The translations under genes and the position numbers were made by a program. Of a stretch of 64,000 nt of DNA, positions 4,165 to 47,819 are shown piece after piece (position 1 is the first letter of the stretch; each line of letters begins with the position of its first letter). The notes under the pieces are model-generated. The model was not told the DNA's origin. It did not search any database and was given only the letters and a program-made list of their open reading frames with translations. Location of the stretch: the NCBI GenBank assembly GCA_001821135.1, contig MHSA01000012.1, positions 6,341-70,340 of the forward strand, in the 5' to 3' direction. The DNA is from Candidatus Taylorbacteria bacterium RIFCSPLOWO2_01_FULL_48_100. Its GTDB lineage: Bacteria > Patescibacteriota > Minisyncoccia > Phycocordibacterales > UBA10002.

Positions 4165-4234
4165 ACTGCGCTAGATGTTGATTGGCGGGAAACTCTTGGT
4201 GCCGTAGGTCGATGTTTTTTAGACAATTTCGTGT

Positions 4235-4999
4235 TTGAATATAATTATGCAACCAACTTCATTAACAGAAGAAACTATAAAACACCAATACACACTTCTT
4301 TGTGCCTCGCATGAAAAGTTTCTGAAAAAGTTTGGTGTCAAGTTGCCAAAATTACAAGATACAGAAGGAAATTTTACGAAAGATGCGCTTGTGTTGGTGT
4401 ATCTTTCGCTTGGGTATCCAAAAACAAAGCCCGTCTCAAAAACAGAACTCACACATTTCATACGAAGTTTTTATCCCGATACACCAGATGTACAGCAAGC
4501 AAGGCATCTTGGTGCGCAGAGTGGCTGGTGGATTGTCGCGGGCGGTCGCGACAATATTGTCGCTAGTTTGCGTCGCGGGTGGTATCAACTGCATACTCTG
4601 GAAAAGCCATACCCATCTTTTCACCTAGGTCACCGCATTACAGAAACCGCGAATTGGGCTTTACTAAAAAAACAATATGGTTTTCGGTGCGCAACTTGCG
4701 GTTCAGAAGAAGGTGAGCCGCATCTCCACTGGCCAGCTACAAAAACAAAAATACAAATAGCCCATAAAGATCCTAATAAACCATTAGTTGCTGGTAATAT
4801 CATTCCACAATGCCAAAAATGCAACAGAGCAGATAGAAATAGGTGGGTGTATGACGACAAAGGAAGAGTTATTAAATTAGCAGACGCCAATTTTGTGAGA
4901 AACTTTGATACAATGGTAAGGTGGAAAATATATAAAATACTCTGTAGGGAATTTCGTGATAAAAATCCACACAAAAATGAACGAGAAATTTTTGAATAA
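4235..4999 (+). CDS. HNH-family restriction endonuclease (putative Type II R subunit)
   Basis: C-terminal HNH motif (CATCG...IAHKDPNK...NIIPQCQKCN). AT-rich relative to flanks. Overlaps the downstream methyltransferase gene. Confidence 0.55.
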   Translation: MNIIMQPTSLTEETIKHQYTLLCASHEKFLKKFGVKLPKLQDTEGNFTKDALVLVYLSLGYPKTKPVSKTELTHFIRSFYPDTPDVQQARHLGAQSGWWIVAGGRDNIVASLRRGWYQLHTLEKPYPSFHLGHRITETANWALLKKQYGFRCATCGSEEGEPHLHWPATKTKIQIAHKDPNKPLVAGNIIPQCQKCNRADRNRWVYDDKGRVIKLADANFVRNFDTMVRWKIYKILCREFRDKNPHKNEREIFE

Positions 5000-5960
5000 A
5001 ATTGTAACAGGTGACGCCCTTAAACTCCTTAATGACATTGAGGATGGTTCCATTGACTTGGTTTTGACCGACCCGCCTTATTTCTTAGATAAACTGGACA
5101 ATGAATGGAATCAACAAAAGGTTTCGCTTCGTCTCAAAAGTCAGTTGGTGGTAAAATCGCTTCCAGCCGGGATGAAGTTTGACAGAGAACAAGGAAAACG
5201 GTTTTACGAGTGGTACAGTTTGGTATCCAGTCAGTTATTTCGTGTGTTAAAGCCTGGAGGTTTTTTCTTTTCCTTTTCAAGCCCTCGTCTGTATCACCGC
5301 ATGGCTTCCGCAGTTGATGATGCCGGTTTTGAAGTCCGTGATATGTTTCTTTGGCTCTATACACAAAATCAAATGAAAGCGATGGGGTTGGCGCATTTTA
5401 TTGATAAACTTAGAGTGTCCTCTGCAGAAAAAGACGTCTTAAAAGAAGAACTACGCGGTTGGAAGACTCCGCAAGTCAAGTCGTGTTTTGAACCGATTGT
5501 CATGGCGCAAAAACCAACCGATGGAACATATCTCTCAAATATCCAAAAGCACCATGTAGGATTAGTCAATACAAATATACGAATTGGAGACGGGATGTTT
5601 CCGTCAAATGTCAGTATAACGGAGCCAATTCATAAAGTGCTTGACCGTGCGTTTCTTTTACCGAAACCGTCGCAAGAAGAGCGAGGTGTGGATAATATCC
5701 ATGAGACCGTTAAACCACTTGTTCTATGTCAGTACATCATTGCTCTTACTGCGTTTGCAAAAGATGCTGTTGTGCTTGACCCGTTTGTGGGGAGTGGAAC
5801 TACGGCATTGGCGGCAGATCGACTTGGCAAGCAGTTTATCGGACTCGATATAAATAAATCGTATGTTGAGATCGCGCGTCGACGTCTGAAGAAAAAAGAA
5901 ATAGTATCATCATTCGCTTCGTTTATTCCAATTACACGACAACCGCAATTACTTGCTTAG
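4956..5960 (+). CDS. beta-class DNA amino-methyltransferase (N6-adenine or N4-cytosine)
   Basis: Motif IV (SIDLVLTDPPY) lies near the N-terminus and motif I (VLDPFVGSGTTALAA) near the C-terminus. Overlaps the upstream REase gene by 23-44 nt; an alternative start is at 4977. Confidence 0.8.
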   Translation: MIKIHTKMNEKFLNKIVTGDALKLLNDIEDGSIDLVLTDPPYFLDKLDNEWNQQKVSLRLKSQLVVKSLPAGMKFDREQGKRFYEWYSLVSSQLFRVLKPGGFFFSFSSPRLYHRMASAVDDAGFEVRDMFLWLYTQNQMKAMGLAHFIDKLRVSSAEKDVLKEELRGWKTPQVKSCFEPIVMAQKPTDGTYLSNIQKHHVGLVNTNIRIGDGMFPSNVSITEPIHKVLDRAFLLPKPSQEERGVDNIHETVKPLVLCQYIIALTAFAKDAVVLDPFVGSGTTALAADRLGKQFIGLDINKSYVEIARRRLKKKEIVSSFASFIPITRQPQLLA

Positions 5961-5970
5961 TAAATGCAAA

Positions 5971-6498
5971 ATGTTCTCCAACCCATCACAAATTATTTCT
6001 CAATTAGACCTGCAATCCAGCGCGCGGGTGGCGGATATTGGCGCGGGGAGCGGGGCGTATGCACTTGCGGCGGCGAAAGCGGTCGGGGAGCATGGCAAGG
6101 TTTTTGCGGTAGAAGTGCAAAAGGAGCTTTTGTCGCGCATAGAAAAAGAAGCACGCTCAAAAGGCATTCATAATATAGAAACAATGTGGGGGGATGCGGA
6201 GAGCGCGGGCGGAACGCATCTTGCGGACGGCGCGTGTAATGCGGTAATTATTGCAAATGTGCTTTTTCAAGCGTCCGATAAACAGGCGCTCGCGCGCGAA
6301 GCCGCGCGGATTCTGGAACCCCGTGGTCGCGCGCTTGTGGTGGATTGGTCGGGCTCGTTTGGCGGCGCGGGTCCTGCGCCCGCCGCCGTGGTTTCCAAGC
6401 AAAAAGCGCAAGAGATTTTTGAAAGCGCCGGGTTTGTATTGGAACGCGCTGTGGATGCGGGCGCAAACCACTATGGTATAATTTTTAGGAAAAAATAA
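5971..6498 (+). CDS. class I SAM-dependent methyltransferase
   Basis: Motif I (VADIGAGSGAYAL). GC-rich, unlike the preceding R-M pair. Start taken at the internal Met (MFSNPS). Confidence 0.65.
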   Translation: MFSNPSQIISQLDLQSSARVADIGAGSGAYALAAAKAVGEHGKVFAVEVQKELLSRIEKEARSKGIHNIETMWGDAESAGGTHLADGACNAVIIANVLFQASDKQALAREAARILEPRGRALVVDWSGSFGGAGPAPAAVVSKQKAQEIFESAGFVLERAVDAGANHYGIIFRKK

Positions 6499-6609
6499 TA
6501 CCAATCTGCGAATTATACCAATGATACAAATGTCTACGAATAAGAAATGAATTTTATTAGTAGTCATTAGTAGAATTGGTATGTATTAGTATATTGGTAT
6601 GTCCATCTT

Positions 6610-7872
6610 ATGCGTCCATTCCAAATAATACTTCTCGCCGTTTTTGTGATAGCCGCCATTGCGGGGCTGGTCGCCTTTTCGCTTTTTAAGGGCACGCCCC
6701 CCGCAGGGGGGCTTGCGGAACTTGAAGTATGGGGTTCATTTCCGTCATCCGCGTTTTCAAGTGCGACGGCGGACTTGTCTGGAGATGAGTTTAAAATTAC
6801 ATACAAAGAAATCTCCGCGGCTCGGTTTGAGCAAGAACTCATAGAGGCGCTCGCGGCTGGAAGAGGGCCAGATGCGATTATTTTGCCGTCAGAACTTGTA
6901 GTGCGGCATAGCGACAAAATCGTACTGATTCCATTGGAGACACTCTCGGAACGGCAATTTAAAGACGCTTTTGTGGAAGCGGAAGAGGCGTTTTGGACGC
7001 CAGCCGGCGCGCTCGCGATTTCGCTCGCCGTGGACCCTATTGTTATGTACTGGAATCGCGACCGGTTGAGTGCGGGAGGAGTCGCGCGGCCCCCTCGCTA
7101 TTGGGATGAGGTTCTTACGGCAGTTCCGAAGTTGACACTTCGCAATCGGCTCGGGCAAATCCAATCTGCAGGCATTTCTCTCGGCGAGTTTCGCAACATT
7201 ACGAATGCGAAAGAAATTATCTCCGCGCTCTTTTTCCAAAGCGGCGGCAAGCTCATTTCGCGCGCACCGGAAGGATACGCAGTATCGCTTGAGGATTGGG
7301 CGAATGCCGGAAGCGCACTCGGCTTTTTCACTGAGTTTGCAAATCCTGTGAAGTCGCTATACACATGGAATCGCGGTCTGCCACAATCACGCGACATGTT
7401 TGCATCTGGCGACCTTGCGCTGTATTTAGGCTTCGCGTCCGAATATGCGGGGCTTCGCGAAAAGAATCCGCATTTAAATATGTCCGTCGCGCCATTCCCG
7501 CAAACGCGCGATTCTAAACTCACGGTAACATTCGGCAAAGCGTGGGGGCTTGCCGCATTAAAGACGGGAAGAAATCCAGCTGGTGCGATGCGGCTTGGTT
7601 TCGCACTTGCGGATTCCACGCGAATAACAAGATTGGCGGAAGCGCTCGGCACGGTGCCGCCACTTCGCGCACTTCTGGAACGCAAAGCAGACAGTGCCGC
7701 GAAGTCGGTATTTTACGAGGCGGCTTTGCAGGCGCGTAGTTTCCTAGACCCAAACCCTACGGAAACGGCAAAATTATTCCAATCGGTTGTAGAAAATATC
7801 ACCGGCGGCAGAGGGCAGGTAGCGAGCGGGGTAGGCGACTTGCGGAGTGGATTAGAAAGATTACTAAAATAA
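6610..7872 (+). CDS. membrane-anchored extracellular solute-binding-protein-like protein
   Basis: N-terminal TM helix followed by a ~390 aa soluble domain. Weak resemblance to family-1 substrate-binding proteins. No permease genes adjacent. Confidence 0.4.
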   Translation: MRPFQIILLAVFVIAAIAGLVAFSLFKGTPPAGGLAELEVWGSFPSSAFSSATADLSGDEFKITYKEISAARFEQELIEALAAGRGPDAIILPSELVVRHSDKIVLIPLETLSERQFKDAFVEAEEAFWTPAGALAISLAVDPIVMYWNRDRLSAGGVARPPRYWDEVLTAVPKLTLRNRLGQIQSAGISLGEFRNITNAKEIISALFFQSGGKLISRAPEGYAVSLEDWANAGSALGFFTEFANPVKSLYTWNRGLPQSRDMFASGDLALYLGFASEYAGLREKNPHLNMSVAPFPQTRDSKLTVTFGKAWGLAALKTGRNPAGAMRLGFALADSTRITRLAEALGTVPPLRALLERKADSAAKSVFYEAALQARSFLDPNPTETAKLFQSVVENITGGRGQVASGVGDLRSGLERLLK

Positions 7873-7874
7873 AT

Positions 7875-8315
7875 ATGGAGCAAAACACATTTTCAAAATG
7901 TCTGGAGCGAATGGTCGCATTGCAGCGACCCGAGCGTTACCGAGGACTTTTGCAAAATGTGTTTTGCGGAATGTTTATATATGTTGTTCTTGTTGCGCCA
8001 CTTTTTGCTCACGCCGCTCCGATTGTCCCGTGCGGAAACCCAGGTCAAGAGCCGTGCGGCTTCAATCACTTCCTCATCGGCATCAACAATGTAATTAACT
8101 TTTTGATTATGATTGGCGGCTCCATCGCCGCGATTGTGTTTGCATGGGCGGGAATTCTGATTTTGACTGCCGGCGCGAACGAAAGTCAAGTAACTAAAGC
8201 AAAAGGAATGTTCTGGGCAGTGCTAAAGGGTTTCGCGCTGATGCTCGCCGCGTGGATTTTGGTGAAAATGGTGCTGGTTGGGCTTGGGGTTCCGGATGCG
8301 TTCTCATTGCTTTGA
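7875..8315 (+). CDS. VirB2/TrbC-like pilin family small membrane protein (paralog 1 of 6)
   Basis: Signal-like hydrophobic segment, then the shared core (LTAGANESQVTKAKG...) and a second TM helix. This architecture is shared by all six paralogs. Confidence 0.55.
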   Translation: MEQNTFSKCLERMVALQRPERYRGLLQNVFCGMFIYVVLVAPLFAHAAPIVPCGNPGQEPCGFNHFLIGINNVINFLIMIGGSIAAIVFAWAGILILTAGANESQVTKAKGMFWAVLKGFALMLAAWILVKMVLVGLGVPDAFSLL

Positions 8316-8319
8316 TAGT

Positions 8320-8742
8320 ATGGAGAAAGAGACACCAGATGTTGATAGGCGGCAAACATCTAGTGTCTTGGTGTGGTACAATAACACTCATATGCAAAAA
8401 GTGTTTTGGGTAATAATTGGATTTTTGCTTTCCGCAGGGCAAACATACGCACTGCATACTGGCGGTGGTTTGCCGCATCTTGATAACCCGCTTGGACCTA
8501 CTACCAATACATTTGAAGCGCTTGCGGCGAAAATACTTGTGATTGTTTCCGATATAGGCGGCGTGGTGGCGGTATTCTTTATTATTTACGCAGGGTTTTT
8601 GTTTGTAACTGCTGGCGGAAACGAAGATAAGCATAAGAGCGCGAAAAAGGCGATTTTGTATGCAGTCATCGGCACCGCAATCCTCCTCGGTGCGCAAGCA
8701 CTCGCAAAGATTTTAGAGGCAACGATAAACTCGTTGAAATAA
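8320..8742 (+). CDS. VirB2/TrbC-like pilin family small membrane protein (paralog 2)
   Basis: Shared core VTAGGNEDKHKSAKKAILYAVIGTAILLG. Start codon uncertain (8278, 8320 or 8392). Confidence 0.55.
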   Translation: MEKETPDVDRRQTSSVLVWYNNTHMQKVFWVIIGFLLSAGQTYALHTGGGLPHLDNPLGPTTNTFEALAAKILVIVSDIGGVVAVFFIIYAGFLFVTAGGNEDKHKSAKKAILYAVIGTAILLGAQALAKILEATINSLK

Positions 8743-8745
8743 TAT

Positions 8746-9066
8746 ATGAAAAAAATATACGCAACATTCTTAATACTCTCACCGCTTTCTGTTTTTGCCG
8801 CGCCAGCCGATTTCAAGGGACTGGTTAATTTGGCGCTGGACAACATCAATGTTGCGCTTTTTGCGCTCCTAATTCTCGCGTGGTTTGTTGTATTTGCGAA
8901 AATAGCCGGTTATATAGGGGCGGGTGTGGGAGGAGATGAAAAAAAGATGAGTGCTTTCAAACAAACGGCACTTTTTGGTGTTCTTGGTATTGCGGCATTA
9001 TTAGTGTATTGGGGCGCGGCAAAAATTATTTGTTTAAGTTTGCTTGGCCCAGGCAATTGCAATTAA
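8746..9066 (+). CDS. VirB2/TrbC-like pilin family small membrane protein (paralog 3)
   Basis: Signal peptide MKKIYATFLILSPLSVFAAP. Core IGAGVGGDEKKMSAF plus second TM. Confidence 0.55.
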   Translation: MKKIYATFLILSPLSVFAAPADFKGLVNLALDNINVALFALLILAWFVVFAKIAGYIGAGVGGDEKKMSAFKQTALFGVLGIAALLVYWGAAKIICLSLLGPGNCN

Positions 9067-23800: not shown

Positions 23801-24388
23801 TTAATAACTTTCCGCTTTTTCTTTAAACTGTTCAAAGTTTTGATACAACTCTGTGCGGAATCCGAAAGCCGCCGCACCTTCTGTATTTTCAACATCATCG
23901 TCCCAAAAAACTACCGCTTCTTTTTTCATTCCGGTTTTTTCTAAGATGTATTGAAAGAATGCGGCATCAGGTTTTTTCGAGCTGACATAAGCCGAAGAAA
24001 ATACGCCATCAAACCAATTACTCAATCCTCGTTTTTCTACAAGATTATCGGTACGATACTTTTCGTTGTTGGTCGCAAGATAGATTTTCACCCCTTTTGC
24101 CCTCAACGCTTGAATGGTGGTCTTAAATCTCTTATCAATTGCGGTGTGTTTCTCTGAAAACCAACAATCTAGAAAAGCATCAACGCCGTCTTTCCACCCC
24201 CATTGTTTCAAGTATTTCCGGAGTTCTTTTTTCAGATCTAATTTTCCTACCACACAGAGTTGGAATTCGTTACGAAAGAATGGGCCAGTGACCTCAGTAG
24301 AAATTCCGTATTCGCGCGCAAGCCGATTACTGAACCGTTCGCCGTGAACAATCATCCCGTCTGCATCAAGAATAAGTGCCTTTGTCAT
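23801..24388 (-). CDS. HAD-superfamily hydrolase
   Basis: DxD motif I (LILDADGMIV) and a later DDD motif. Minus-strand terminator downstream. Confidence 0.75.
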   Translation of the reverse strand: MTKALILDADGMIVHGERFSNRLAREYGISTEVTGPFFRNEFQLCVVGKLDLKKELRKYLKQWGWKDGVDAFLDCWFSEKHTAIDKRFKTTIQALRAKGVKIYLATNNEKYRTDNLVEKRGLSNWFDGVFSSAYVSSKKPDAAFFQYILEKTGMKKEAVVFWDDDVENTEGAAAFGFRTELYQNFEQFKEKAESY

Positions 24389-24471: not shown

Positions 24472-25293
24472 ATGCCTCTACGCTCCGAATTTCGCGGGAT
24501 GCGCCGCAGCCGCCGCGCGCGGCGGCTGCGGCTTCTCGCATGGCGCGCGTTTTTCGGCGCATCCGCGCTTGCGCTCCTCTTTTTCGGCTTGTCGTGGTTT
24601 TCGTTTTACGCGCCTTTCCAAATTAAAAAAGTCGTCATTGTTGGAGTGAATAATTCCTCACGCGTAGAAGAACTTCGCGCCGAGGCGGAGGTTGCCCGTG
24701 CGTTTAGGGAAGAGGGCATACGCCTTTTTTCTCCGACAAACTTTTTGCTGTATCCGCGCGCCGCGCTCGCCGCCGCCGTCGCTTCGTCCTCTCCGCGCAT
24801 CGCGTCTGCCGCCGCCGCGCGCGGCGGCGGGATTGTGATTGTCGTCGTTTCCGAACGCGCGCCGTTCGCAGAATGGTGCTCATCTACAAGCGAATGTATT
24901 TTTATTGACGAAAACGGTTTTGGTTTTCCGAATGCGAAAGGAGACGCGCCCCCGATTTCAAATGTCGTTTTTGTTGGTGAAAGTCCGCGCGCCGGCGCGC
25001 GCTATCTTCTGCACGAGAAGTTTCTTTTGCTTCGCGACATTGTTTATTCCGCAGAGCGAATTGGTTTGATTGTTAAAAAAGTAAAGCAAGAAGAGGGGGA
25101 CGATTTTTCGTTGTCGCTTGCCGATAATGCAGAGGCGCGTTTTGTGTTATCTTTTGAAACCGCAAAAATATTTTTAGAACTCCCGACTATTCTCCAGGCC
25201 GCAAACCTAAAAATCTCAGGCGGCTCGGTATATCCCGCACTTCAATATCTTGATATGCGTTTCGGCGGCCAGGTAGTGTTTAAGAGGATATAA
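24472..25293 (+). CDS. FtsQ/DivIB-like cell division protein (TM + POTRA-like)
   Basis: Basic N-terminus, TM helix, then beta-rich extracellular domain. The assignment is weak. Confidence 0.45.
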   Translation: MPLRSEFRGMRRSRRARRLRLLAWRAFFGASALALLFFGLSWFSFYAPFQIKKVVIVGVNNSSRVEELRAEAEVARAFREEGIRLFSPTNFLLYPRAALAAAVASSSPRIASAAAARGGGIVIVVVSERAPFAEWCSSTSECIFIDENGFGFPNAKGDAPPISNVVFVGESPRAGARYLLHEKFLLLRDIVYSAERIGLIVKKVKQEEGDDFSLSLADNAEARFVLSFETAKIFLELPTILQAANLKISGGSVYPALQYLDMRFGGQVVFKRI

Positions 25294-25300
25294 ATTAAAC

Positions 25301-25336
25301 TAGACACACGATGTTGATGTGCTTCAAACATCTGGT
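25301..25336. repeat. hairpin family Y, copy 2 (reverse orientation)
   Basis: cacgatgttgatgtgcttcaaacatctggtg; reverse complement of the Y consensus. Confidence 0.55.
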
Positions 25337-25387
25337 GCCCCTGCAATTTATCATTAAGCCACGATCGTATCTTAATAATAAAACTAA

Positions 25388-25435
25388 TATACACTATCTC
25401 TGACGGTCGTTAGAGATAGTGTATTCAGTCATTTT
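25388..25435. repeat. hairpin family X, copy 1 (acactatctct...agagatagtgt + attttgc)
   Basis: Also present at 44097-44140. A related long-range inverted repeat (gttagagatag) lies at 14155-14290. Confidence 0.5.
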
Positions 25436-25518
25436 GCAAAATGTTTGTATAAGATATTGCAATAAAAAAGTCGCTTCGGTTTCCCAAAGCGACTTGTCTC
25501 GTCGTATGACGAGATGTT

Positions 25519-26538
25519 CTAGTTTCCCCTTGTTGATAGTTGCCGGACGCGCACGAGTTCTGTCGCTTTCGCGACAAACTCTGCGGCAATCTGGTGCTCC
25601 TCCTTAAACGGCTCTTCGCCTGTCATTGCCTTGCGGAGCAGTACACACGCTCCCGAGTACATCTCAAAGTTGATTGAGGTGTTCGCTTCAATAAGCACGC
25701 GGACGCGCTCTTTGCTGTCGCGGTTCGTCGCCTGCCAGATGAGGGACTTTTCGGCAAGGGACTTAATTCTCTGGCCGTCTGCGTCCTCTGCATCGCGGCG
25801 CACTTCTCCGAAGGTGCTCCCGACATACGACATCCATTCAAGGATATAAAGCGTCATTTCTTCTGTCGGAGTGATCGGGTGCAGGTCTTCTTCATTGAGC
25901 CACCGGTGCAAACTTGGTGCCAGAAAAGGCCGATTGCCGCATTTCTTGCAGACGGCGCTGTCAATGTTGAAGAGATACGCATTGAGCGAAATCTCCGCTC
26001 CGCAGAGGGAACATTTTCGGTCCCACATGAGCCCGTCAAAGTTCCATTTTCCGGTCGGACGGACGCCTTCGCCGGCGAGCATTTCCAGTTGCGTTGGCGT
26101 AGTGCCTTTCAGAAGGTCCCACTGGTCAATTCGTCCCATGTCCAGAAGATTTTCGCATTCGCAGTCTTCGTAGAATTCCCAGCGGATGCCACTCCCCATC
26201 CAACAGTTCGCGAGATTGTTTCCAATCAGAATGCACACTGCTTCAGGGCTGTTATGCGTAACCCCGATGACCCAAGTTCTCCGCGGCTCACGACCCCAGA
26301 GATACCGTACGCGCACTTTATTTTTGTCTCGCGTGCGCTCCGTGAAGTACGCGCGGTAATGCGATTGCCGTTCTGGCGCATGTTCATCCCGAAAAGAAAC
26401 CATGGCGGTTTCTGCATCCGGATACATTCCGTGGAGCATCAAACGATTTTCCACGATGCCCGCACCGGCAATAGGGTGCATCAGTACCGGAATAACCGGC
26501 AGTTTTTGCGTTGCAACTACTTGTTGTTCTGCTTTCAT
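25519..26538 (-). CDS. hypothetical Zn-ribbon protein, paralog of the upstream gene
   Basis: Shares with the 26535..27617 protein the motifs W-E-x-Y, GR-D-x-DL, KG-W-F-DG, C-x-L-C-G and C-x2-C-G. The two genes overlap by 4 nt. Confidence 0.6.
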   Translation of the reverse strand: MKAEQQVVATQKLPVIPVLMHPIAGAGIVENRLMLHGMYPDAETAMVSFRDEHAPERQSHYRAYFTERTRDKNKVRVRYLWGREPRRTWVIGVTHNSPEAVCILIGNNLANCWMGSGIRWEFYEDCECENLLDMGRIDQWDLLKGTTPTQLEMLAGEGVRPTGKWNFDGLMWDRKCSLCGAEISLNAYLFNIDSAVCKKCGNRPFLAPSLHRWLNEEDLHPITPTEEMTLYILEWMSYVGSTFGEVRRDAEDADGQRIKSLAEKSLIWQATNRDSKERVRVLIEANTSINFEMYSGACVLLRKAMTGEEPFKEEHQIAAEFVAKATELVRVRQLSTRGN

Positions 26539-27617
26539 TTTCTTTCCTTTCTTTCTGTTTTGTTGAGTTTTCGGTAATTCAAGATGAGTTCGTTAATGAG
26601 AATCGGCAATGTCTCCACCGCCACTCTCATATCCAAGTGCATTTGCTTGATTTTTGGATTGCCCGGATTCTTTTTCTGTTCTTCCAACCATAACGGCGAG
26701 AACTGTTCGCTGACGCGGACAATGGCTTTCACAAGCACTTCTCCGTGACCGTTGGTCGCTTTGCGTACACATGCGGTGAAGATATCCTCTAGTTCTGGCC
26801 GGACAATAAGCCGAAACAAACTTTGGTCGTACAAACTCTTAAAATTGTCAAAGCATCCGCCAAACCAGTCAAAGACGCTCTGAAAATTTAGATTGCACTC
26901 CAACTGTTCAATCGGCCAGAACGCAACGGAATTTGCAACGGGGTCTATGAAATGCTGGATTCCCGCTTCGCCACTCGGCGAAGGAGTCCAGTGTTCCGTG
27001 ATTCGTTGTCTCTTCCACCGCACTTGCGATATGAGTTCCATGATGATGTCGCGGCTTTTGCCGAGTGGGGTTTCCACTCCGCAACTTTCGCACGGCTTGC
27101 GCGAAACATATAGAACCGATGTTCGGTCAAATACGCCCCCGCACAGCGGACATCGGTGTGTTAGAAGAATCCCGTCAAAGTCCCAGTCGCCCTTTGGATA
27201 GACGCCGCGTTGTATGAGCGACTTTCGCTCATCTAACGAAACATCTCCTGCAAGGTCTTGGTAGTCAAACCGCCCTTGCTCGATTAGTTCCGAGAGAGCG
27301 AAATCGCGGTAGATTTCCCACCGCGCGATAGTTAACTTGCAACCGGATGCAAAGTTCCCGATAAGAACTTTGATTGCCGGAAGATCGTTAATCGTCATAC
27401 CAACGACAGCGTCTTCAAACTTGCGTTCGTGCCGAAGATTCTTAACCTGCCGTATGATTGCCCGCCCATTTTTTTCTTCTATCCAGAAGACCACGCGGTG
27501 AGGCAAATATTCCGAAGCAAATGTGTTTCGGAAAGATGAGAAAAGTTCTTTAGCGTATGCTTCACGATAACCGTCCTGAAATGCTTGATTTGCAATGGCT
27601 GGTAGTAATTCTGTCAT
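26535..27617 (-). CDS. hypothetical Zn-ribbon protein, paralog of the downstream gene
   Basis: See the previous entry. 360 aa. Divergently arranged relative to the membrane protein / Clp-like pair. Confidence 0.6.
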   Translation of the reverse strand: MTELLPAIANQAFQDGYREAYAKELFSSFRNTFASEYLPHRVVFWIEEKNGRAIIRQVKNLRHERKFEDAVVGMTINDLPAIKVLIGNFASGCKLTIARWEIYRDFALSELIEQGRFDYQDLAGDVSLDERKSLIQRGVYPKGDWDFDGILLTHRCPLCGGVFDRTSVLYVSRKPCESCGVETPLGKSRDIIMELISQVRWKRQRITEHWTPSPSGEAGIQHFIDPVANSVAFWPIEQLECNLNFQSVFDWFGGCFDNFKSLYDQSLFRLIVRPELEDIFTACVRKATNGHGEVLVKAIVRVSEQFSPLWLEEQKKNPGNPKIKQMHLDMRVAVETLPILINELILNYRKLNKTERKERK

Positions 27618-27716
27618 TTTTCTCCTTTTTTAAGGTTGAGTTTTAACTATTTTCAAGGTGTCTAGTCATAGAATACACGAAACAAACTCAGTGTCAAGGT
27701 CTTAAAGAAACACTCG

Positions 27717-28142
27717 GTGTATGCATTTGAGGAACCGGATTTCTTTGTGCGTGATATAATGTTCAGTATGAATCTTATCGCGTTTTTTCCGCAGTATTTT
27801 GTGTGGCATTATACTGTCGCGCTCATGGATTTTGCGCGCACTGTGTCTAATTTCTTTTGGTTTCTTTGGAACTTTTTTTCCATAGAGCTCCTCGCGCGCT
27901 CGTTTTTCGTGCCGTGGAAGCGGCTCGGTGAGGAGCAAGGGTCGTTCGTCGGGCGCGCGATTGTCGGCGCGGCTATGCGCGCCATCGGCATCATTGCGCG
28001 GCTCGCGCTGTTCGCGCTCGCCGCGCTTTCTTTCGTAGTAACCTTCTTTGCGTTGATTTTCGCGCTCGCGTTGTGGCTCGTTCTGCCGTTAGTAATTGCG
28101 TTTTTGCTTTTTATCGGTATTCGCTCGCTTTTTTCAATATGA
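27717..28142 (+). CDS. hypothetical polytopic membrane protein
   Basis: Four hydrophobic helices. Its stop codon overlaps the start of the next gene (ATGA). Confidence 0.5.
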   Translation: MYAFEEPDFFVRDIMFSMNLIAFFPQYFVWHYTVALMDFARTVSNFFWFLWNFFSIELLARSFFVPWKRLGEEQGSFVGRAIVGAAMRAIGIIARLALFALAALSFVVTFFALIFALALWLVLPLVIAFLLFIGIRSLFSI

Positions 28143-30622
28143 CATTCACAGATATAAAACAATCCACAAAAGTGTATCGTCTTGGAGTTGCGATTGAGCG
28201 ATTTTTTCCTCTGCCGTCGCGCCTTCGCCTTGCGCGCGCGCTTGGTTTTTTCGTTATTGTTTCTTTGGCAGGCGCGCTCCTCTTTTCAATTTTCACCGCA
28301 AGTCCCGATTTTGCCGCGCGCCTCTCCGTATCCGAAGGATTGCTGACGTTTTTGCGCTATGCTCCCGGCGTTTTTTACATTGCGCTCGCCTGCTGGCTCG
28401 CGCTTTTTGCCGCGAACGCTTGTTACTATTCTTTCGCGTGCCACTCTCGCCCACCGCTTCTCCGCGAGCTGTTTTGGAAACCAGTGCCTCCCGTTTCTTT
28501 TGACGCGGCGGTCTTGATTGCGGAACTTTACGGAAACGATATTTTTCGGCGCTTCGCAGATGTTTTTTTAGGAAAGCAGATTTTCGCTCGGCTTGGAATT
28601 TCGCGTGCGGCAGTGCGCGCGTTTTTAGAGAAACCGCGCATCACAGTTTCGGCGGATACGCTTTCATTCTCACCAACAAACGGGCGTGCATTGCTGCTCG
28701 GGGATGTTGTTTTTGCTCTTTTCTCTCTTGATACGGACGGCGCACTTTTTCTTGCAGAACAAGGCGCATCCGTTCCTACCGCCATCGGCACGGCGGCGTG
28801 GGTTGAGCGCGGTCTTGCGAATATGCGCCGAAGCAGGCGCTTTTGGGGGCGTGAAAATTTGGGAAGGATTCACGGCATCGGCAAGGATTGGGCGTATGGC
28901 TCTGCGTGGCGGCTTTCGCGGTATGGTAAAGATATTTCTCTAGTTCCTGTATTTTCGCGAGTTGGGAGCGCCGAAGCCGCGCTTGCGGCGGATTCGGCAG
29001 AGCAAGTGGAATCCGTGCTTTCACGCGAGCGTGAGGCGAACGCGCTTCTAGTGGGCGATGTAGGTTCTCCTCGCGAAGCGGCAGTCGCTTTTCTTGCGGC
29101 GCGCATCAAGGAAGGGAGCGTACTTCCGCAGTTGGAGCACAAACGAATGATTGTTTTTGATACGGAGGCGTTTATAGCAGATACAAAAAACAAAACCGCC
29201 TTTGAAGGCGAGCTTATCCGTTTGTTTAAAGAAGTTGAATCCGCAGGCAATTTGATTATTATTATTCCTAATTTTCCTGAATTCTTGGAAAGCGCGGCAG
29301 GAATTGGAAGCGACGCGGTACGACTTATGGACGATTTTCTCGCCTCTCCGCGCATTCAACTTATTGCGCTCGCGGAAACAGGAGCTTTTCACCGCACGAT
29401 TGAGCCAAATGCAGAACTTATGAAGCGGTTTGAAAGGATTCTCGTGCCTCCAGCAGACGAACGCGCGGTTCTTCCGTATCTTGAAGATGAAGCGTTGCGT
29501 ATGGAAAGCGGCGGCAGGATTTTCTTTACATATCCGGCGATTGAAGCGGCAGTAAAATCAAGTGCACGGTATTTTATGGGCGATTCGCTTTTGGATAAGG
29601 CAACGGATGTGCTGTATGAGGCCGCGAGCAATGTGAGAAAAGAAAACCGCCGTGCTGTTTTGTCGTCAGATATTTTAGCGGTAATTGAGAAGAGGACTGG
29701 CGTACCTGCTGGTGCGCTAACCGAGTCCGAGCGAACATCGCTACTTGAACTGGAATCAAAATTGCGTACGCGCGTTGTGGGGCAGGACGAAGCACTCGCG
29801 GCGGTTGCGGGCGCGCTTCGGCGCGCCCGCGCGGGCATTGCGAATCCAAACCGTCCGTTCGGCTCATTTCTATTTCTCGGACCGACAGGAGTAGGAAAAA
29901 CAGAAACCGCGAAGGCGCTTGCGTCTTCTTTTTTTGGGACGGAAGACGCAACACATCGGCTTGACCTCTCCGAATATAGGACTGCGGATGCAATGGAGCG
30001 GCTTATCGGTTCGTTCGCAGTAGGAAAGCAGGGTGTACTTTCATCGCTTTTGCGCGAAAAGCCGTACGGCGTTCTCCTTTTAGATGAGTTTGAGAAGACG
30101 ACCGTGGAAATCCGGCACTTGTTTTTACAGGTACTTGATGAAGGATTTTTCACTGACTCGTCGGGCAAACAGGTCAATTGCCGCAATCTTTTGATTATCG
30201 CGACATCAAATGCTGGGAGCGACCTTATTTGGAACGCCGTGCGGCATGGGAGCGATTTGCAAGATGAAAAAAGGCGGATTATAGACGCGCTTATTGAACG
30301 CGGCGCGTTCACTCCGGAACTTCTTAACCGTTTTGATGGCGTCGTGCTATTCCAACCGCTTGTGGGGAAAAATCTGCGCACTGTAGCTAAGCTTATGCTA
30401 CAAAAGCTTGTGAAGCGGCTCAGCGAGCGCGGCATTTTGTTTGTGCCGACCGAGCGGCTGACGGACTTTGTGTCGGATGCAGGCGCCGACCCGCAGTTTG
30501 GCGCGCGTGCGATGCAGCGCGCAGTGCAAGACAAAGTAGAGCGCGCGATTGCCGACAAAATACTTAAAGGCGATATACGCCCCGGCTCGCGTGTAGAATT
30601 GTCGCCAGAAGAATTGCATTAA
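28139..30622 (+). CDS. membrane-anchored ClpA/ClpB-like AAA+ ATPase with degenerate first nucleotide-binding domain
   Basis: C-terminal D2 domain is intact (GPTGVGKTE Walker A, LLLDEFEK Walker B, sensor and arginine finger). The D1 region has a non-canonical Walker A (GDVGSPRE) and Walker B (IIIIPNFPE). N-terminal ~280 aa contain TM helices. Confidence 0.75.
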   Translation: MTFTDIKQSTKVYRLGVAIERFFPLPSRLRLARALGFFVIVSLAGALLFSIFTASPDFAARLSVSEGLLTFLRYAPGVFYIALACWLALFAANACYYSFACHSRPPLLRELFWKPVPPVSFDAAVLIAELYGNDIFRRFADVFLGKQIFARLGISRAAVRAFLEKPRITVSADTLSFSPTNGRALLLGDVVFALFSLDTDGALFLAEQGASVPTAIGTAAWVERGLANMRRSRRFWGRENLGRIHGIGKDWAYGSAWRLSRYGKDISLVPVFSRVGSAEAALAADSAEQVESVLSREREANALLVGDVGSPREAAVAFLAARIKEGSVLPQLEHKRMIVFDTEAFIADTKNKTAFEGELIRLFKEVESAGNLIIIIPNFPEFLESAAGIGSDAVRLMDDFLASPRIQLIALAETGAFHRTIEPNAELMKRFERILVPPADERAVLPYLEDEALRMESGGRIFFTYPAIEAAVKSSARYFMGDSLLDKATDVLYEAASNVRKENRRAVLSSDILAVIEKRTGVPAGALTESERTSLLELESKLRTRVVGQDEALAAVAGALRRARAGIANPNRPFGSFLFLGPTGVGKTETAKALASSFFGTEDATHRLDLSEYRTADAMERLIGSFAVGKQGVLSSLLREKPYGVLLLDEFEKTTVEIRHLFLQVLDEGFFTDSSGKQVNCRNLLIIATSNAGSDLIWNAVRHGSDLQDEKRRIIDALIERGAFTPELLNRFDGVVLFQPLVGKNLRTVAKLMLQKLVKRLSERGILFVPTERLTDFVSDAGADPQFGARAMQRAVQDKVERAIADKILKGDIRPGSRVELSPEELH

Positions 30623-31752: not shown

Positions 31753-32442
31753 TTGTTCATGATACAAAAAACAAAAGAAAAGGAAGAAGCACTTACTTTA
31801 AGACGAAATGGAATGTCATATAGCGAGATCTTGAAACGAATTTCCGTTGCAAGATCAACCCTATCACTTTGGCTTCGAGATGTTGGTTTATCGCAGAGAC
31901 AAAAGCAATGCCTAACCGAAAAGAAACTTAAAGGAATGGCGCGTGGTTGGGCCAATATTCGAAATAGAAGAATTAGAAAATCAGAATATATAAAAGAAGT
32001 TGCTCGCGCTGAAGCGGAGCAACTTATAATTGATCCGTTGTGGCTAACTGGAGTTGTTTTGTATTGGGCAGAGGGCGGTAAAGAAAGAAAATGGCGAACA
32101 GGTGAGAAGGTTTCTTTTTCCAATATGGAGTGGCGTATGCACGCCATCTTTCTTAGTTGGATTTTTCAATATGCAGGAAAGGGTATGAATGATTTAGTTT
32201 TTGAGATTTATATTCACGAAAGTGCAGATATAAGGTTGGCTAGGAAATATTGGTCAAGATTACTAAAGATAAAACCAATAGAACTTAGAATTTACTTAAA
32301 GCGGAAGAATAACAATCCACACAGGCACAATATTAATAATGAGTATCATGGTCTTTTGCGTATTTGTGTTAGAAGGAGCGTTGATCTGAATCGAAAAATT
32401 GCCGGATGGATTGAAGGTGTGGTACAGTATTTTAGTAAATGA
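31753..32442 (+). CDS. HTH-domain protein, possibly a homing-endonuclease-like nuclease
   Basis: N-terminal HTH (MSYSEILKRISVARSTLSLWL). AT-rich. The motif LWLTGVVLYWAEGGK is LAGLIDADG-like but lacks the acidic residues. Ends 5 nt before tRNA-Gln. Confidence 0.35.
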   Translation: MFMIQKTKEKEEALTLRRNGMSYSEILKRISVARSTLSLWLRDVGLSQRQKQCLTEKKLKGMARGWANIRNRRIRKSEYIKEVARAEAEQLIIDPLWLTGVVLYWAEGGKERKWRTGEKVSFSNMEWRMHAIFLSWIFQYAGKGMNDLVFEIYIHESADIRLARKYWSRLLKIKPIELRIYLKRKNNNPHRHNINNEYHGLLRICVRRSVDLNRKIAGWIEGVVQYFSK

Positions 32443-32447
32443 TACAT

Positions 32448-32518
32448 TGCCGGCTCGTCTAACGGTAGGACGTCTCCCTTTGAAGGAGAAAATTGGGGTT
32501 CGATTCCCTGGCCGGCAG
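32448..32518 (+). tRNA. tRNA-Gln(UUG)
   Basis: Cloverleaf folded by hand: acceptor tgccggc/gccggca, anticodon loop cuUUGaa, T-loop ttcgatt. CCA not encoded. Confidence 0.8.
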
Positions 32519-32736
32519 TCAGTTTGAGATACATTTATTATTCATTGCGGCTGGTAAATTTACACAATTTTATAGAATAATTACCAATTATTAAATAACA
32601 AAGAAATTGAGTTTGCGAGAAAAATACAAAATGATTTCTGTAAAAATAAGATATTTTAATCTTTTATACTACCCTCAAACAACATGTAAGCAATCACGCA
32701 GTTGATTTTTTTGAGAGAAGAGTATACGATAGTTTT

Positions 32737-44270: not shown

Positions 44271-44566
44271 GCCGAGGTAGCTCAGTTGGTAGAGCGTCCG
44301 CCTGAAATCTTCGGGCCTTTCCGCCGCAAGGCGGATAGAAAAGCGGGTGAAATCGGGGAACATCCAATGACAAACAATCGGACAATCCCGAGCCAAGCTC
44401 GCCGAATAGGCGAGAAGGTGTAGAGACTATTCCTTTGGGAAGTACCCTCTTTTTAACAAAAGATGGGGAAGCGCCCGCCCCCTACTCCATCAAAGATGGA
44501 CGGGTGATGATATAGTCCAAATTATGGAAGAGCGGTAGGTCGGCAGTTCGATTCTGCCCCTCGGCA
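44271..44566 (+). tRNA. tRNA-Phe(GAA) interrupted by a group I intron in the anticodon loop
   Basis: 5' exon 44271-44303 (acceptor gccgagg, D-arm tagctcagttggtagagc, anticodon-stem 5' strand tccgc, loop cu|). 3' exon 44527-44566 (gaaga, anticodon-stem 3' strand gcggt, variable loop, T-arm ggcag-ttcgatt-ctgcc, acceptor cctcggc-a). Confidence 0.7.
44304..44526 (+). other. group I intron (~223 nt) within tRNA-Phe
   Basis: Contains group I core-like elements: P-like aaaagcgggtgaaa, Q-like aatcccgagc, R-like tagagactat, S-like gatatagtcc. The last 5' exon base is U, the intron ends in G, and an internal guide GGGC can pair with the exon end GCCU. Confidence 0.6.
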
Positions 44567-44793: not shown

Positions 44794-45339
44794 ATGCTTA
44801 ACAAAATTGATTTTGAAAATATAGTTCGGGATTTCTTATTTACATATAGGAAATTTCTATTCTACGCTTATTTGCACAAAAGGGTAAATCACGACGCATA
44901 CGAAGCAAACAGGATAACTTGGGATACCTTGCTTATTAGCTTAGAATCAGATGCATTACTTGGATTAGCAAAAATACTTTATGACAGGGAAAAAAGCTTG
45001 GGAAGGCCATTCAACGACGGCTCGGGAAAAACATTTAATAACGAAGAATTTAATAACGAAGAATTAAATGAGATTCGCAAAAAAATACTAAACCTGAGAC
45101 ATGATTACCTAGCTCACCAAAATTTATCGAAGATGCGTAATATGGATTCACTTTTGAAGGAAAACCGCTTGACAGGTACAGATGGCGTGAAAATGATCGA
45201 TGCGCTTAAAAGTAGGTTCATTCAATATGAAAAAAATCTTAAGCTCGATGTCAATGTGCAAAAACTATTTACCGAAAGCCAAAATAATGCGCTTAACGAC
45301 CTTGATAGTTGGTTGAAATCTTTTAAGACAGCGCTGTAA
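44794..45339 (+). CDS. hypothetical protein with HEPN-like R-x5-H motif (Abi-like candidate)
   Basis: LRHDYLAH fits the Rx4-6H HEPN signature. 181 aa, AT-rich. Confidence 0.4.
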   Translation: MLNKIDFENIVRDFLFTYRKFLFYAYLHKRVNHDAYEANRITWDTLLISLESDALLGLAKILYDREKSLGRPFNDGSGKTFNNEEFNNEELNEIRKKILNLRHDYLAHQNLSKMRNMDSLLKENRLTGTDGVKMIDALKSRFIQYEKNLKLDVNVQKLFTESQNNALNDLDSWLKSFKTAL

Positions 45340-45365
45340 GTAGAGACAATTTTAGAAATAGATTT

Positions 45366-47819
45366 ATGGCGAAAAAAATATCCAAATCTGGAAATAACTT
45401 TCTAACTGAGCGCGAGGGTCAGATTAAATTTTTCGACGATTTCAAGATAAGTGTCGATGTCGAACTTACTCATAATACCGATGGTGTATATAAGGGTACA
45501 TTATTCGAGTTCAAACTCACCGTATCAGACATTAACAAAGCACTTTTTCAAGCCATAAAATATCTCAGTCACAGACGAATTAGAGGTGAACCAGTGCCAG
45601 CGCAGATCTTACTCGTAGCACTCAACGAAGAGAATGCATATTTATTTGATTCTGGCGATTTCCTTACAGAGATTGAAAAGGTTTATGCTGGTGCTGCTAG
45701 TAAAAATAATGCTGATTTTAGCACTAAGATTAAACCGGAAAAAATTGATTACGGTGAGGCATTTGGCCTGCAACATATCAAAAAAATCCTAAACAAAGAA
45801 CACTTCACTAAAATAAATATTGATGTTTTTGATGTTGTCGGTTGGGCAAATCGATTTTACCGAGAAAACCCATCTGCTAGTAAAATCGAACTTTTCAAGG
45901 AGCTGCGTGCACCAAAACATTTTGCAACTTACATTTATCCATGGACAGGCGATGAAAAAGATTTCAAGTACATCATGGACCTTCTCAATGACACGCAACA
46001 CAAAAAAGAACTCGGTGCCTTTTATACACCACCAGCGTATTGTCGCAAAGCCACGGAATTAGTCCGAAAAGCTATTAGGCAAATACCGGTTGGCCACGAT
46101 TACATTATTCTTGATCGATGCGCCGGTACGGGCAATTTGGAAGAATTCTTAACCGATAAAGCGGTAAAAGATATAACTATCGGTGAGTTAAGCCGCTACA
46201 TCGATAACACTCTTAAAATAAAATATCTGCAGGACAAGGCTGATATTATTGCAATATTTTATAACAAGCGAAATTTTAACGAAATCACCGTTGGAGAATT
46301 GGAGAATCACAAAACCGGTCTCTCACTTTACGATTATATTTTTGACGATGAGCTATCTCATACCATCGTCAATACCTACGAGTTAAAAGAATGGATAGTG
46401 TTGAACTGGCGCATAGGAAATCGTGTCAAGCTCATAATTCCACCGCCACAGGAGATTGATAATACTGAATCGTTAGTCGATGGTGGCGATGCACTAAGTG
46501 TGCAATTTGTTACTGGCCAGAAGTCTATCGGTATGACGGATGAATATAATGATAGCATCGATATGCTTTCGGAGTGTGTCAAAAACAAAAAGACAAACAT
46601 TATTTTATATGAAAATCCGCCCTATCGAGATACGACATCTAATACGCATTTAGCAAGTTCTGGGAAAGGCGCGAATTTTGTTAAGGATGAAATGGCATCT
46701 GAAAAGAGGTGGGGTGCTACGCAAAACGATATTGCCAACCAATTTATTTGGTCAGGATGGAAGCATTATCTCACAAAGCCAGATGATTATTTTGTACTTT
46801 TCAGCCCCATAAAGTATTGGAAATCACTTGGTCTTGGTGAAAAGAAATTCATTGACGGCTTTTTGTTTAACCGCCAATTTTTTCATGCTGGTCCTAGTGC
46901 TATCAGTTGTATTTTATGGAACAATACTAACGACAGTCGTGAGTCGTTAACACTTAAAGCTTTTGATATAGACACGAATAACACACCAGAACAAGAAGAC
47001 GACACAATCGTTTATTTCAAAGATATAACAGTCAACAAAGTACATGAATCGTTGAAGCCATATTTTGATAAACGAAGATTTGATGACGATGTCGATATCT
47101 CCGTTGTTGTCGAACTATCTGGTCTTGAATCGTCTAAAAAGATTACAAAAAAACCAATCTACAACAAAAATATAGTCGGCCATATAAGAATCACAAGCTT
47201 CAATCTTGATCCGATAAGCATGTCATTGACTACAGTGGTAACACATAACGGTCTAACGAAGACAATTGGTTTTTATTTGCGTTCTGACAATTTTATTGAA
47301 AAATTACCTCTATTTGCAGCCAAACTGTATCCGCAAAAAAATTGGTATGAGCGCGACACATACTTTACTACAGCCGATGGTGGTGACCGTTATCTAAAAG
47401 ACAAAGATTTTTTGAAAGCATGTTTTATATTTGCTTGTATTAGTCAGCGCAACCATTGTCGGAGCTTCGATGGTAGCGATGGTCGATTTTACAAGAACGA
47501 GCTTTGTTTTGATAAAGGCACGGTGGCAAGTAGCAAACTAAAAAGCTACAAATTTACTAATCAGGAACTGGATTTGATAGATACTTTTACAGATGTGCTT
47601 ACAAAAGCAAAATCTACTAAAGAGTACAACTCAAAGTACACATATGGAACATATCAAATCGACGAAGAACTTAACACTCGCTATAAAAATGATAACGATG
47701 AATGGATCTACGATTATCCGGAACTCAACACGGCGATTAACAGTTTAAAGACGAAATTAGCTAAGTATTATGAGATCGCTATTCAGCCAAAGCTGTTTGA
47801 ATATGAACTACTAAAATAG
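45366..47819 (+). CDS. fused PD-(D/E)xK nuclease / gamma-class N6-adenine DNA methyltransferase / specificity protein (Type IIG/IIL MmeI-like R-M enzyme, or a BREX PglX-like enzyme)
   Basis: N-terminus D...EFK (VDVELTHNTDGVYKGTLFEFK). Methyltransferase motif X (GAFYTPPAY), motif I (ILDRCAGTGNL) and motif IV (ILYENPPYRD). Long C-terminal region. AT-rich. Confidence 0.55.
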   Translation: MAKKISKSGNNFLTEREGQIKFFDDFKISVDVELTHNTDGVYKGTLFEFKLTVSDINKALFQAIKYLSHRRIRGEPVPAQILLVALNEENAYLFDSGDFLTEIEKVYAGAASKNNADFSTKIKPEKIDYGEAFGLQHIKKILNKEHFTKINIDVFDVVGWANRFYRENPSASKIELFKELRAPKHFATYIYPWTGDEKDFKYIMDLLNDTQHKKELGAFYTPPAYCRKATELVRKAIRQIPVGHDYIILDRCAGTGNLEEFLTDKAVKDITIGELSRYIDNTLKIKYLQDKADIIAIFYNKRNFNEITVGELENHKTGLSLYDYIFDDELSHTIVNTYELKEWIVLNWRIGNRVKLIIPPPQEIDNTESLVDGGDALSVQFVTGQKSIGMTDEYNDSIDMLSECVKNKKTNIILYENPPYRDTTSNTHLASSGKGANFVKDEMASEKRWGATQNDIANQFIWSGWKHYLTKPDDYFVLFSPIKYWKSLGLGEKKFIDGFLFNRQFFHAGPSAISCILWNNTNDSRESLTLKAFDIDTNNTPEQEDDTIVYFKDITVNKVHESLKPYFDKRRFDDDVDISVVVELSGLESSKKITKKPIYNKNIVGHIRITSFNLDPISMSLTTVVTHNGLTKTIGFYLRSDNFIEKLPLFAAKLYPQKNWYERDTYFTTADGGDRYLKDKDFLKACFIFACISQRNHCRSFDGSDGRFYKNELCFDKGTVASSKLKSYKFTNQELDLIDTFTDVLTKAKSTKEYNSKYTYGTYQIDEELNTRYKNDNDEWIYDYPELNTAINSLKTKLAKYYEIAIQPKLFEYELLK

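Follow-up and report, generated by a model that had tools for sequence, protein, structure and literature searches.

Four adjacent genes in the genome of a candidate phyla radiation (CPR) bacterium, two coding for paralogous proteins and two for membrane proteins, raise the question of whether they act as one system. They lie in a stretch of 64,000 nucleotides (nt) of contig MHSA01000012.1 (assembly GCA_001821135.1, positions 6,341 to 70,340) from Candidatus Taylorbacteria bacterium RIFCSPLOWO2_01_FULL_48_100; this whole stretch is called the window here, and coordinates refer to it unless another locus is named. The minus strand carries the pair of paralogs: an upstream A2-type gene (26535..27617, 360 amino acids (aa)), which we propose to encode a catalytic subunit, and a downstream A1-type gene (25519..26538, 339 aa). 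The two genes overlap by 4 nt (ATGA), which couples the translation of A1 to that of A2; these lengths and the overlap in the list of open reading frames (ORFs) are those given in an initial annotation of the DNA made from its letters alone. Divergent from A2, after 100 nt, the plus strand carries the gene of a small transmembrane protein (TM, 27717..28142) and that of a membrane-anchored ClpA/B-like AAA+ protein of 827 aa (Clp, 28139..30622). All four proteins are deposited under hypothetical or uncharacterised names. The initial annotation had read the four genes as one module. We found instead that the region very probably consists of two unrelated, independently conserved two-gene operons that stand back to back.

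The pair and the TM-Clp genes in other genomes

We collected 15 distinct loci that carry the pair (the window, L001, L002, L004, L006, L010, L011, L013, L015, L016, L035, L037, L038, L039 and the P0077 contig). At every one of them an A2-type gene is followed immediately by an A1-type gene; the stop of the first overlaps the start of the second in about 10 of the 15, the genes are no more than 41 nt apart in the others, and each contig holds one copy of the pair. The flanks, up to 10 kb long and shorter than 2 kb on one side in some contigs, were searched for TM and Clp homologues by tblastn (L001-L016) or through gene and Pfam tables (the other loci), and in these available flanks none was present near the pair at any distinct locus except the window. 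Four more contigs (L017-L020) carry all four genes together, in the window's gene order and with its exact Clp protein; these belong to the same or near-identical organisms and are not independent evidence.

A homologue search with the N-terminal 330 aa of Clp returned no matches, and scanning metagenomes for the N-terminal half of Clp yielded 14 loci. A TM homologue (36-43% identity) ends just before Clp in each of the 12 loci that reach 35% identity and include upstream DNA, as expected from the initial claim that a membrane protein is coupled to a membrane-anchored Clp, and A1 or A2 homologues were found in none of these 12. Eight of the Clp loci keep the order seen in the window, namely DprA (minus strand) followed on the plus strand by SerRS, a membrane-anchored protein of 273 aa (24472..25293 in the window, assigned by synteny and hydropathy), TM and Clp, and they do so without the pair. 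The gap between the 273-aa gene and the TM gene is only 38-112 nt in L027, L031 and L032; it is occupied by a PemK/MazF toxin gene in L023, L024 and L026 (Pfam E=1e-10, above the cut-off; 4558-4950 in L024) and by an unrelated orphan gene for 289-294 aa in L028, L030 and L033 (3461-4330 in L028 and 4525-5409 in L030). This junction is a variable hot spot that holds the pair in the window genome. Because relatives keep the DprA-SerRS-273-aa-TM-Clp block without the pair, the position of the pair beside the Clp operon is explained by an insertion and not by a functional linkage; by synteny with L027, L031, L032, L024, L028 and L030, the inserted segment is the whole pair cassette, between the conserved left flank formed by the 273-aa gene and the TM gene (25294..27716).

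A single translocation, surface or defence module that joins the pair to the membrane protein and the membrane Clp is therefore very improbable and already largely refuted. The short divergent spacing of the window, repeated in the non-independent L017-L020, is what speaks for it; co-occurrence of the four genes breaks down in both directions, with the pair adjoining TM-Clp at the window alone and TM-Clp standing without the pair in every informative relative, the TM gene of relatives directly follows the 273-aa gene, and a separate promoter and terminator bound the pair. The operon-level reading was a plausible one, and it is corrected here: adjacency in a single genome reflected an insertion event. 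On the other side of the 273-aa gene, between it and SerRS, the window carries a gene for a HAD-family hydrolase (23801..24388, minus strand) that has no counterpart in the syntenic relatives and is probably a second, independent insertion. An FtsQ-like label given to the 273-aa protein from its motifs found no support in Pfam and was dropped.

As far as its sequence can tell, the cassette of the pair, about 2.3 kb long, is autonomous and comprises a promoter, a ribosome-binding site, two coupled genes and an intrinsic terminator. The cassettes of L002 and L035 lie between unrelated flanks (aminoglycoside-type and zeta-like kinases in the former, a serine recombinase and an SDH protease in the latter) and are 79.7% identical over 2313 nt, a stretch that takes in about 145 nt before the A2 start and about 55 nt beyond the A1 stop; the same pattern was seen when L006 was compared with L015, L015 with L035, and L002 with L006. 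The upstream edge of the shared stretch is formed by a TTGACA...TAtAAT promoter and a leader, and the downstream edge by a GC-rich hairpin and T-run, beyond which the sequences abruptly cease to resemble each other; a hairpin with a T-run follows A1 in 11 of 12 loci. In the window, a consensus scan placed a sigma-70-like promoter match (TTGACA, 16 nt, TATTCT; 10 of 12 positions) at 27670..27697 on the minus strand, 53-80 nt upstream of the A2 ATG. This match is weak alone, with a regional match count not above that of shuffled sequences; TTGACA/TAtAAT boxes in the corresponding position of L002, L006 and L035 support it. The predicted terminator (25462..25495, minus strand, with the hairpin at 25468-25495) has a stem of 12 bp and a loop of 4 nt followed by a T-run, begins 24 nt after the A1 stop and has equivalents elsewhere. 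We also observed a 5' leader (TTTGTCAATTTCATAACTCACAAC...TCAA) whose conservation exceeds that of the coding sequence at L002 10030-10100, L035 1730-1800, L006 2625-2695 and L015 8846-8890, which suggests a clade-specific regulatory element. As a general cis element the leader was rejected, being limited to the one clade of these four loci and absent from the window.

The A1/A2 family and its predicted fold

A1 and A2 are a real, unrecognised family without known relatives or function. For A1, A2 and the TM protein, hmmscan returned no family from Pfam, NCBIfam, PADLOC or PHROGs apart from sub-threshold zinc-ribbon matches to the paralogs, and PADLOC-DB 2.0 contained 0 families at E≤1 for either paralog. 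A Pfam scan of 75 family members, together with a comparison of the family profile against PDB sequences, yielded only weak zinc-ribbon matches below threshold, the best of them at E=0.013 with 15.8 bits against a cut-off of 27.8; in the scan of the 75 members only generic zinc-ribbon models recurred. Literature searches gave nothing relevant. The initial annotation had likewise been able to name no family for the paralogs, and had called them clear paralogs; both statements hold, the first in that no Pfam, NCBIfam, PADLOC or PHROG model matched and the second in that BLASTP aligned A1 with A2 at E=2e-22 (30% identity over 161 aa). Furthermore, hhalign of the two subfamily profiles gave a probability of 100% and E=1.2e-41 over 267 columns, and since the alignment covers that many columns, the C-terminal helical domain described below is also homologous between the two. 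This similarity is far beyond chance and, at the level of sequence, marks A1 and A2 as true paralogs over both the core and the C-terminal helical domain.

One A2-type homologue (P0012, L006 2696-3796) bears the Joint Genome Institute (JGI) name 'RNase P subunit RPR2'. Nothing beyond a generic zinc ribbon supports this name, and Rpr2 appeared neither in the table for the window A1 nor among the 25 families shown of 35 for the 75 members against Pfam (E≤0.1); the name looks like an annotation artefact. What the paralogs do share with zinc-ribbon domains such as Pfam DUF4428 and Zn_ribbon_8 is a set of four invariant cysteines in a CxxC...CxxC arrangement. Unlike those domains, the ribbon of the paralogs takes up about 25 of 340-360 residues and is embedded in a larger fold that matched nothing. 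It consists of C156, C159, C176 and C179 in A2 (27081..27152, minus strand; invariant columns and the sub-threshold Pfam and PDB matches) and of C176, C179, C197 and C200 in A1 (25939..26013, minus strand; alignment columns), and these predicted zinc ligands, arranged as two CxxC knuckles, are invariant or nearly so in the 75 sequences.

An AlphaFold2 model of A1 built from the 75-sequence alignment reached a mean confidence (pLDDT) of 94.6 and a template modelling score (pTM) of 0.88. The model shows an extended N-terminal peptide, an alpha/beta core at about residues 42-205 and a helical C-terminal domain; the core comprises three antiparallel strands, a helix and further strands, and the four-cysteine zinc ribbon lies at its end. 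We detected no relative of this fold in the PDB. The pair is in this respect a compact and tractable unknown: it is modelled with confidence, it matches no solved structure or curated family, and one of its two paralogs looks active, the other degenerate.

The initial annotation had listed a set of motifs common to both proteins, and these were seen, as RWEFYED and RWEIYRD, GRIDQWDL and GRFDYQDL, CSLCG and CPLCG, and CKKCG and CESCG; only KG-x-W-x-FDG did not stand as given, being exact in A2 (KGDWDFDG) and altered in A1 (TGKWNFDG). Hydropathy revealed no hydrophobic segment in either protein, and their isoelectric points (pI) of 6.0 and 7.6 are near-neutral and not basic. The two subfamilies differ in what they conserve. 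K66, D69, E101, D105, R116, D118, D121, D146, D148 and H154 are kept at 87-100% in the A2-type subfamily, and many of its invariant residues are aromatic (W100, W145, W234 and F147). The acidic set is relaxed in A1-type proteins (E121 80%, D141 67%, D166 77% and D168 73%, with N166 in the window A1), and the positions equivalent to the K, D and H of A2 are not conserved there. A1-type proteins have features of their own, an invariant N-terminal LP..LP..MHP..G peptide and a NIDSxVCxxCGNRPFL motif; in A2-type proteins we noted no conserved features of this kind beyond the candidate active-site residues. Both genes are under purifying selection.

Distribution and possible role of the pair

The pair is rare. 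A word-indexed search of 5.8e9 proteins found 18 A2 homologues, and A1 as query in an exhaustive HMMER scan of 1.84e9 clusters recovered 71 representatives. With an A1-type alignment as query, the pair was located in only 5 of 185,579 species-representative genomes (a single protein as query gave no matches). One each is labelled Taylorbacteria and Uhrbacteria, two bear the automated label 'Saccharibacteria', and one bears the likewise automated label 'Gammaproteobacteria'. So far, the pair has been seen only in CPR-type metagenome assemblies. Genes of mobile elements and of conflict systems stand near it at several loci: a large serine recombinase and a replication-initiator-like helix-turn-helix (HTH) protein at L001; a serine recombinase, an SDH protease and an MNT/HepT toxin-antitoxin pair at L035; a weak Y1 transposase match at L037; a zeta-toxin-like kinase at L002; and a SLOG-domain protein directly downstream of the pair at L013. 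At L004 an SMC-like ATPase near the pair matches mad3/LmuB, the only clear PADLOC match among ten pair neighbours scanned. In L039, which represents a divergent lineage, the pair directly follows a co-directional cluster of dCTP deaminase, P-loop kinase, thymidylate synthase, DHFR and thymidylate kinase (2536-9041), which may hint at a substrate related to nucleotides or DNA.

Taken together, the best overall explanation, and one that we hold to be somewhat probable, is that of two independent operons, of which the pair is a mobile A2/A1 hetero-oligomer cassette with a role in conflict. According to this explanation, a cassette of about 2.3 kb was very probably inserted into the variable junction of the conserved DprA-SerRS-273-aa-TM-Clp block, and its products A2 and A1 would assemble as a 1:1 hetero-oligomer. 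A2 would be the catalytic subunit, carrying out divalent-metal-dependent phosphoryl transfer, most likely on nucleic acid or nucleotide, and A1 would be a structurally equivalent and partly degenerate partner that regulates or scaffolds A2. The cassette behaves like an accessory pair that moves horizontally, and would most probably serve in genetic conflict (defence, addiction or a toxin-antitoxin-like role) rather than in core physiology.

These steps differ in how far they can be trusted. The strict co-occurrence of the two genes, their fixed order and coupling, and the asymmetric charged cluster lead us to infer an active subunit and a degenerate partner in an obligate complex, and on these sequence features we regard an A2/A1 heteromer as reasonably probable. 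Active/degenerate paralog heterodimers encoded by adjacent genes have an example in TsaD-TsaB. A2/A1, as a candidate heterodimer, resemble pairs of this type in being adjacent and translationally coupled paralogs of which one keeps a putative active site that is relaxed in the other; they differ in having no homology to any such pair. Metal-dependent phosphoryl transfer by A2 is suggested by the invariant acidic cluster together with K, R and H. A horizontally moving accessory function is indicated by the patchy distribution, the cassette-like transfer, the absence of the pair at the syntenic site of relatives and the MazF-bearing hot spot. The pair resembles two-gene toxin-antitoxin and defence cassettes as a compact, autonomous and patchy unit at a hot spot occupied by MazF in relatives, and also in its MNT/HepT, zeta-like, SLOG and recombinase neighbours in some genomes, and differs from them in that A1 and A2 are large (340-360 aa), are paralogous to each other and match no PADLOC model. 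From this context we retain for the pair alone the idea of a defence-type function, which the initial annotation had proposed for the four genes together and which falls for the four-gene system. That A2/A1 is a metal-dependent enzyme acting on nucleic acid or nucleotide in genetic conflict is a tentative suggestion, and more doubtful still is that it represents an undescribed class of mobile two-subunit conflict systems, with an active/degenerate paralog heterodimer, a new zinc-ribbon-containing fold and a metal-dependent nucleic-acid-directed site. Unexplored folds and poorly known conflict systems abound in CPR bacteria, and a new cassette-borne enzyme fold would add to both.

Several observations weigh against a catalytic cassette in genetic conflict. 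The surroundings of about half of the pair loci are housekeeping in character (TopA/ParB, aminoacyl-tRNA synthetase (aaRS)/TGT/RecO, GyrB/TsaD, rpsL-fusA/MurA, S9 and ThyA/DHFR/Tmk), and CPR genomes being small and dense, the toxin and recombinase neighbours may have come to lie there by chance. Besides the lack of PADLOC matches for A1 and A2, no relatives of the pair were found on viral contigs, in phage genomes or on plasmids. The spatial clustering of the acidic residues of A2 is assumed from the sequence, and the role of the conserved W, D and R could lie in structure or interfaces rather than in catalysis. It is possible, if somewhat doubtful, that the pair serves ordinary physiology as a lineage-specific accessory enzyme, for example a heterodimer that modifies or processes nucleic acids or nucleotides. 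Neighbours in replication, translation and nucleotide metabolism (TopA, GyrB, TsaD, TGT, RecO and aaRS) fit such an enzyme, as do the dCTP deaminase-ThyA-DHFR-Tmk genes directly upstream on the same strand in L039, the single copy per contig and the purifying selection on both genes. An extremely patchy distribution does not, nor does a cassette-like unit that is missing from the syntenic site of relatives, lies between unrelated flanks elsewhere and recurs alongside recombinases and toxin genes.

Two other explanations concern the biochemistry of the pair. A non-enzymatic heteromeric zinc-ribbon complex, binding nucleic acid or serving in regulation or structure with its W, D and R as interfaces, would account for the zinc ribbon, for the often aromatic nature of the invariant residues (W100, W145, W234 and F147) and for the lack of a recognisable catalytic motif of known class; seven invariant acidic residues together with K, R and H would be unusual for a pure binding protein, however, the cluster is strict in one paralog and relaxed in the other, and neither protein is basic, which makes such a complex unlikely. 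A selfish element resembling an insertion sequence, with a heteromeric transposase or recombinase built on an RNase H-like core, draws on the insignificant tail of the fold matches, in which RNase H-like folds are numerous (integrase cores, IstA, IS621/ISCro4, YqgF and ASKHA kinases). This likeness is a lead, not a classification: we obtained no significant superposition on the five-stranded core with catalytic D/E on strands 1 and 4 that defines RNase H-like enzymes such as DDE transposases, RuvC and integrases. Around the pair there are no terminal inverted repeats, target duplications or meaningful direct repeats, only short chance matches, and the edges of the unit are a promoter and a terminator in place of the terminal inverted repeats or target-site duplication of an insertion sequence; we consider such an element quite improbable.

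The TM-Clp operon and other features of the window

The TM-Clp genes are best described as a resident, lineage-conserved operon for a single-motor Hsp100 variant that is tethered to the membrane and has a small, obligate membrane partner. The TM protein has 141 aa when read from a GTG start (124-127 aa from the gene callers' start at about 27759-27768), and hydropathy shows a strongly hydrophobic C-terminal region at residues 81-141. The ATG of the Clp gene at 28139 overlaps the TM stop (TCAATATGA). The longest Clp ORF begins at a GTG at 28073 and encodes 849 aa; from the ATG the protein has 827 aa, not the 828 of the initial annotation, whose ATGA coupling to the membrane protein was correct. 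Hydrophobic segments at residues 29-57 and 74-96 correspond to the N-terminal TM helices that it had described.

Clp matches AAA_2 (E=1e-35) and ClpB_D2-small (E=3.7e-18). In line with the reading of the initial annotation, its first domain (D1) is degenerate, with GDVGSPRE (29054-29077) and IIIIPNFPE (29255-29281), both on the plus strand, in place of Walker A and B, and its second (D2) is intact, with GPTGVGKT (29879-29902, plus strand) and LLLDEFEK. The loss of the D1 Walker motifs is common to all close Clp orthologues (GEPGGGAMD; VIGDLPGF), in which the GPTGVGKT and LLLDEFEK of D2 are invariant, and a more distant homologue, L034, retains GEPGVGKD. As judged from these motifs, the first ATPase domain is catalytically dead and the second is intact. 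The 827-aa protein resembles the class-I Hsp100 proteins ClpA and ClpB in its two-tier AAA+ layout, its canonical D2 Walker A/B motifs and its D2 module, which by sequence includes the ClpB_D2-small domain. Unlike them, it begins with two N-terminal TM segments instead of a soluble start and has an obligate small membrane partner; a functional D1 Walker A (GxxxxGK[ST]) and Walker B (hhhhDE), which characterise ClpB and ClpA, are lacking, and it scored far below the cut-offs of both ClpB (TIGR03346, 399.5 bits against 1232.1) and ClpA (TIGR02639, 333.8 bits against 993.15). Because the membrane anchor takes up about 100 N-terminal residues and the alignment to ClpA spans residues 310-843 of the 849-aa ORF, a ClpB-type middle domain does not seem to fit in, and on reading the matching stretch of the 827-aa protein we saw no IGL/IGF ClpP-docking tripeptide. 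TM-Clp appears to be an undescribed Hsp100 variant; its fixed place after the gene of the 273-aa membrane protein hints at an envelope-related role, and the pairing is worth noting for the biology of the CPR envelope.

Elsewhere in the window, Rfam gives a group I intron match at 44294-44532 (plus strand) that exceeds the gathering score with 58.6 bits and is overlapped by no rRNA match or ARAGORN tRNA. The match closely follows tRNA-Gly and tRNA-Arg and borders a low-GC stretch. A low-GC island at 44794-47819 (plus strand; GC 0.375-0.39 compared with about 0.48 elsewhere) encodes proteins of 181 and 817 aa. The NPPY motif of the larger protein suggests an N6-adenine methyltransferase or a fused restriction-modification enzyme, and the island is possibly an acquired defence island. 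In addition, a gene at 31753-32442 (plus strand) encodes a protein of 229 aa in which a resolvase-type HTH is weakly matched (HTH_7/HTH_23, E of about 1e-4, just below the cut-offs). It ends 5 nt before tRNA-Gln (32447-32520, plus strand) and could be the remnant of an integrative element.

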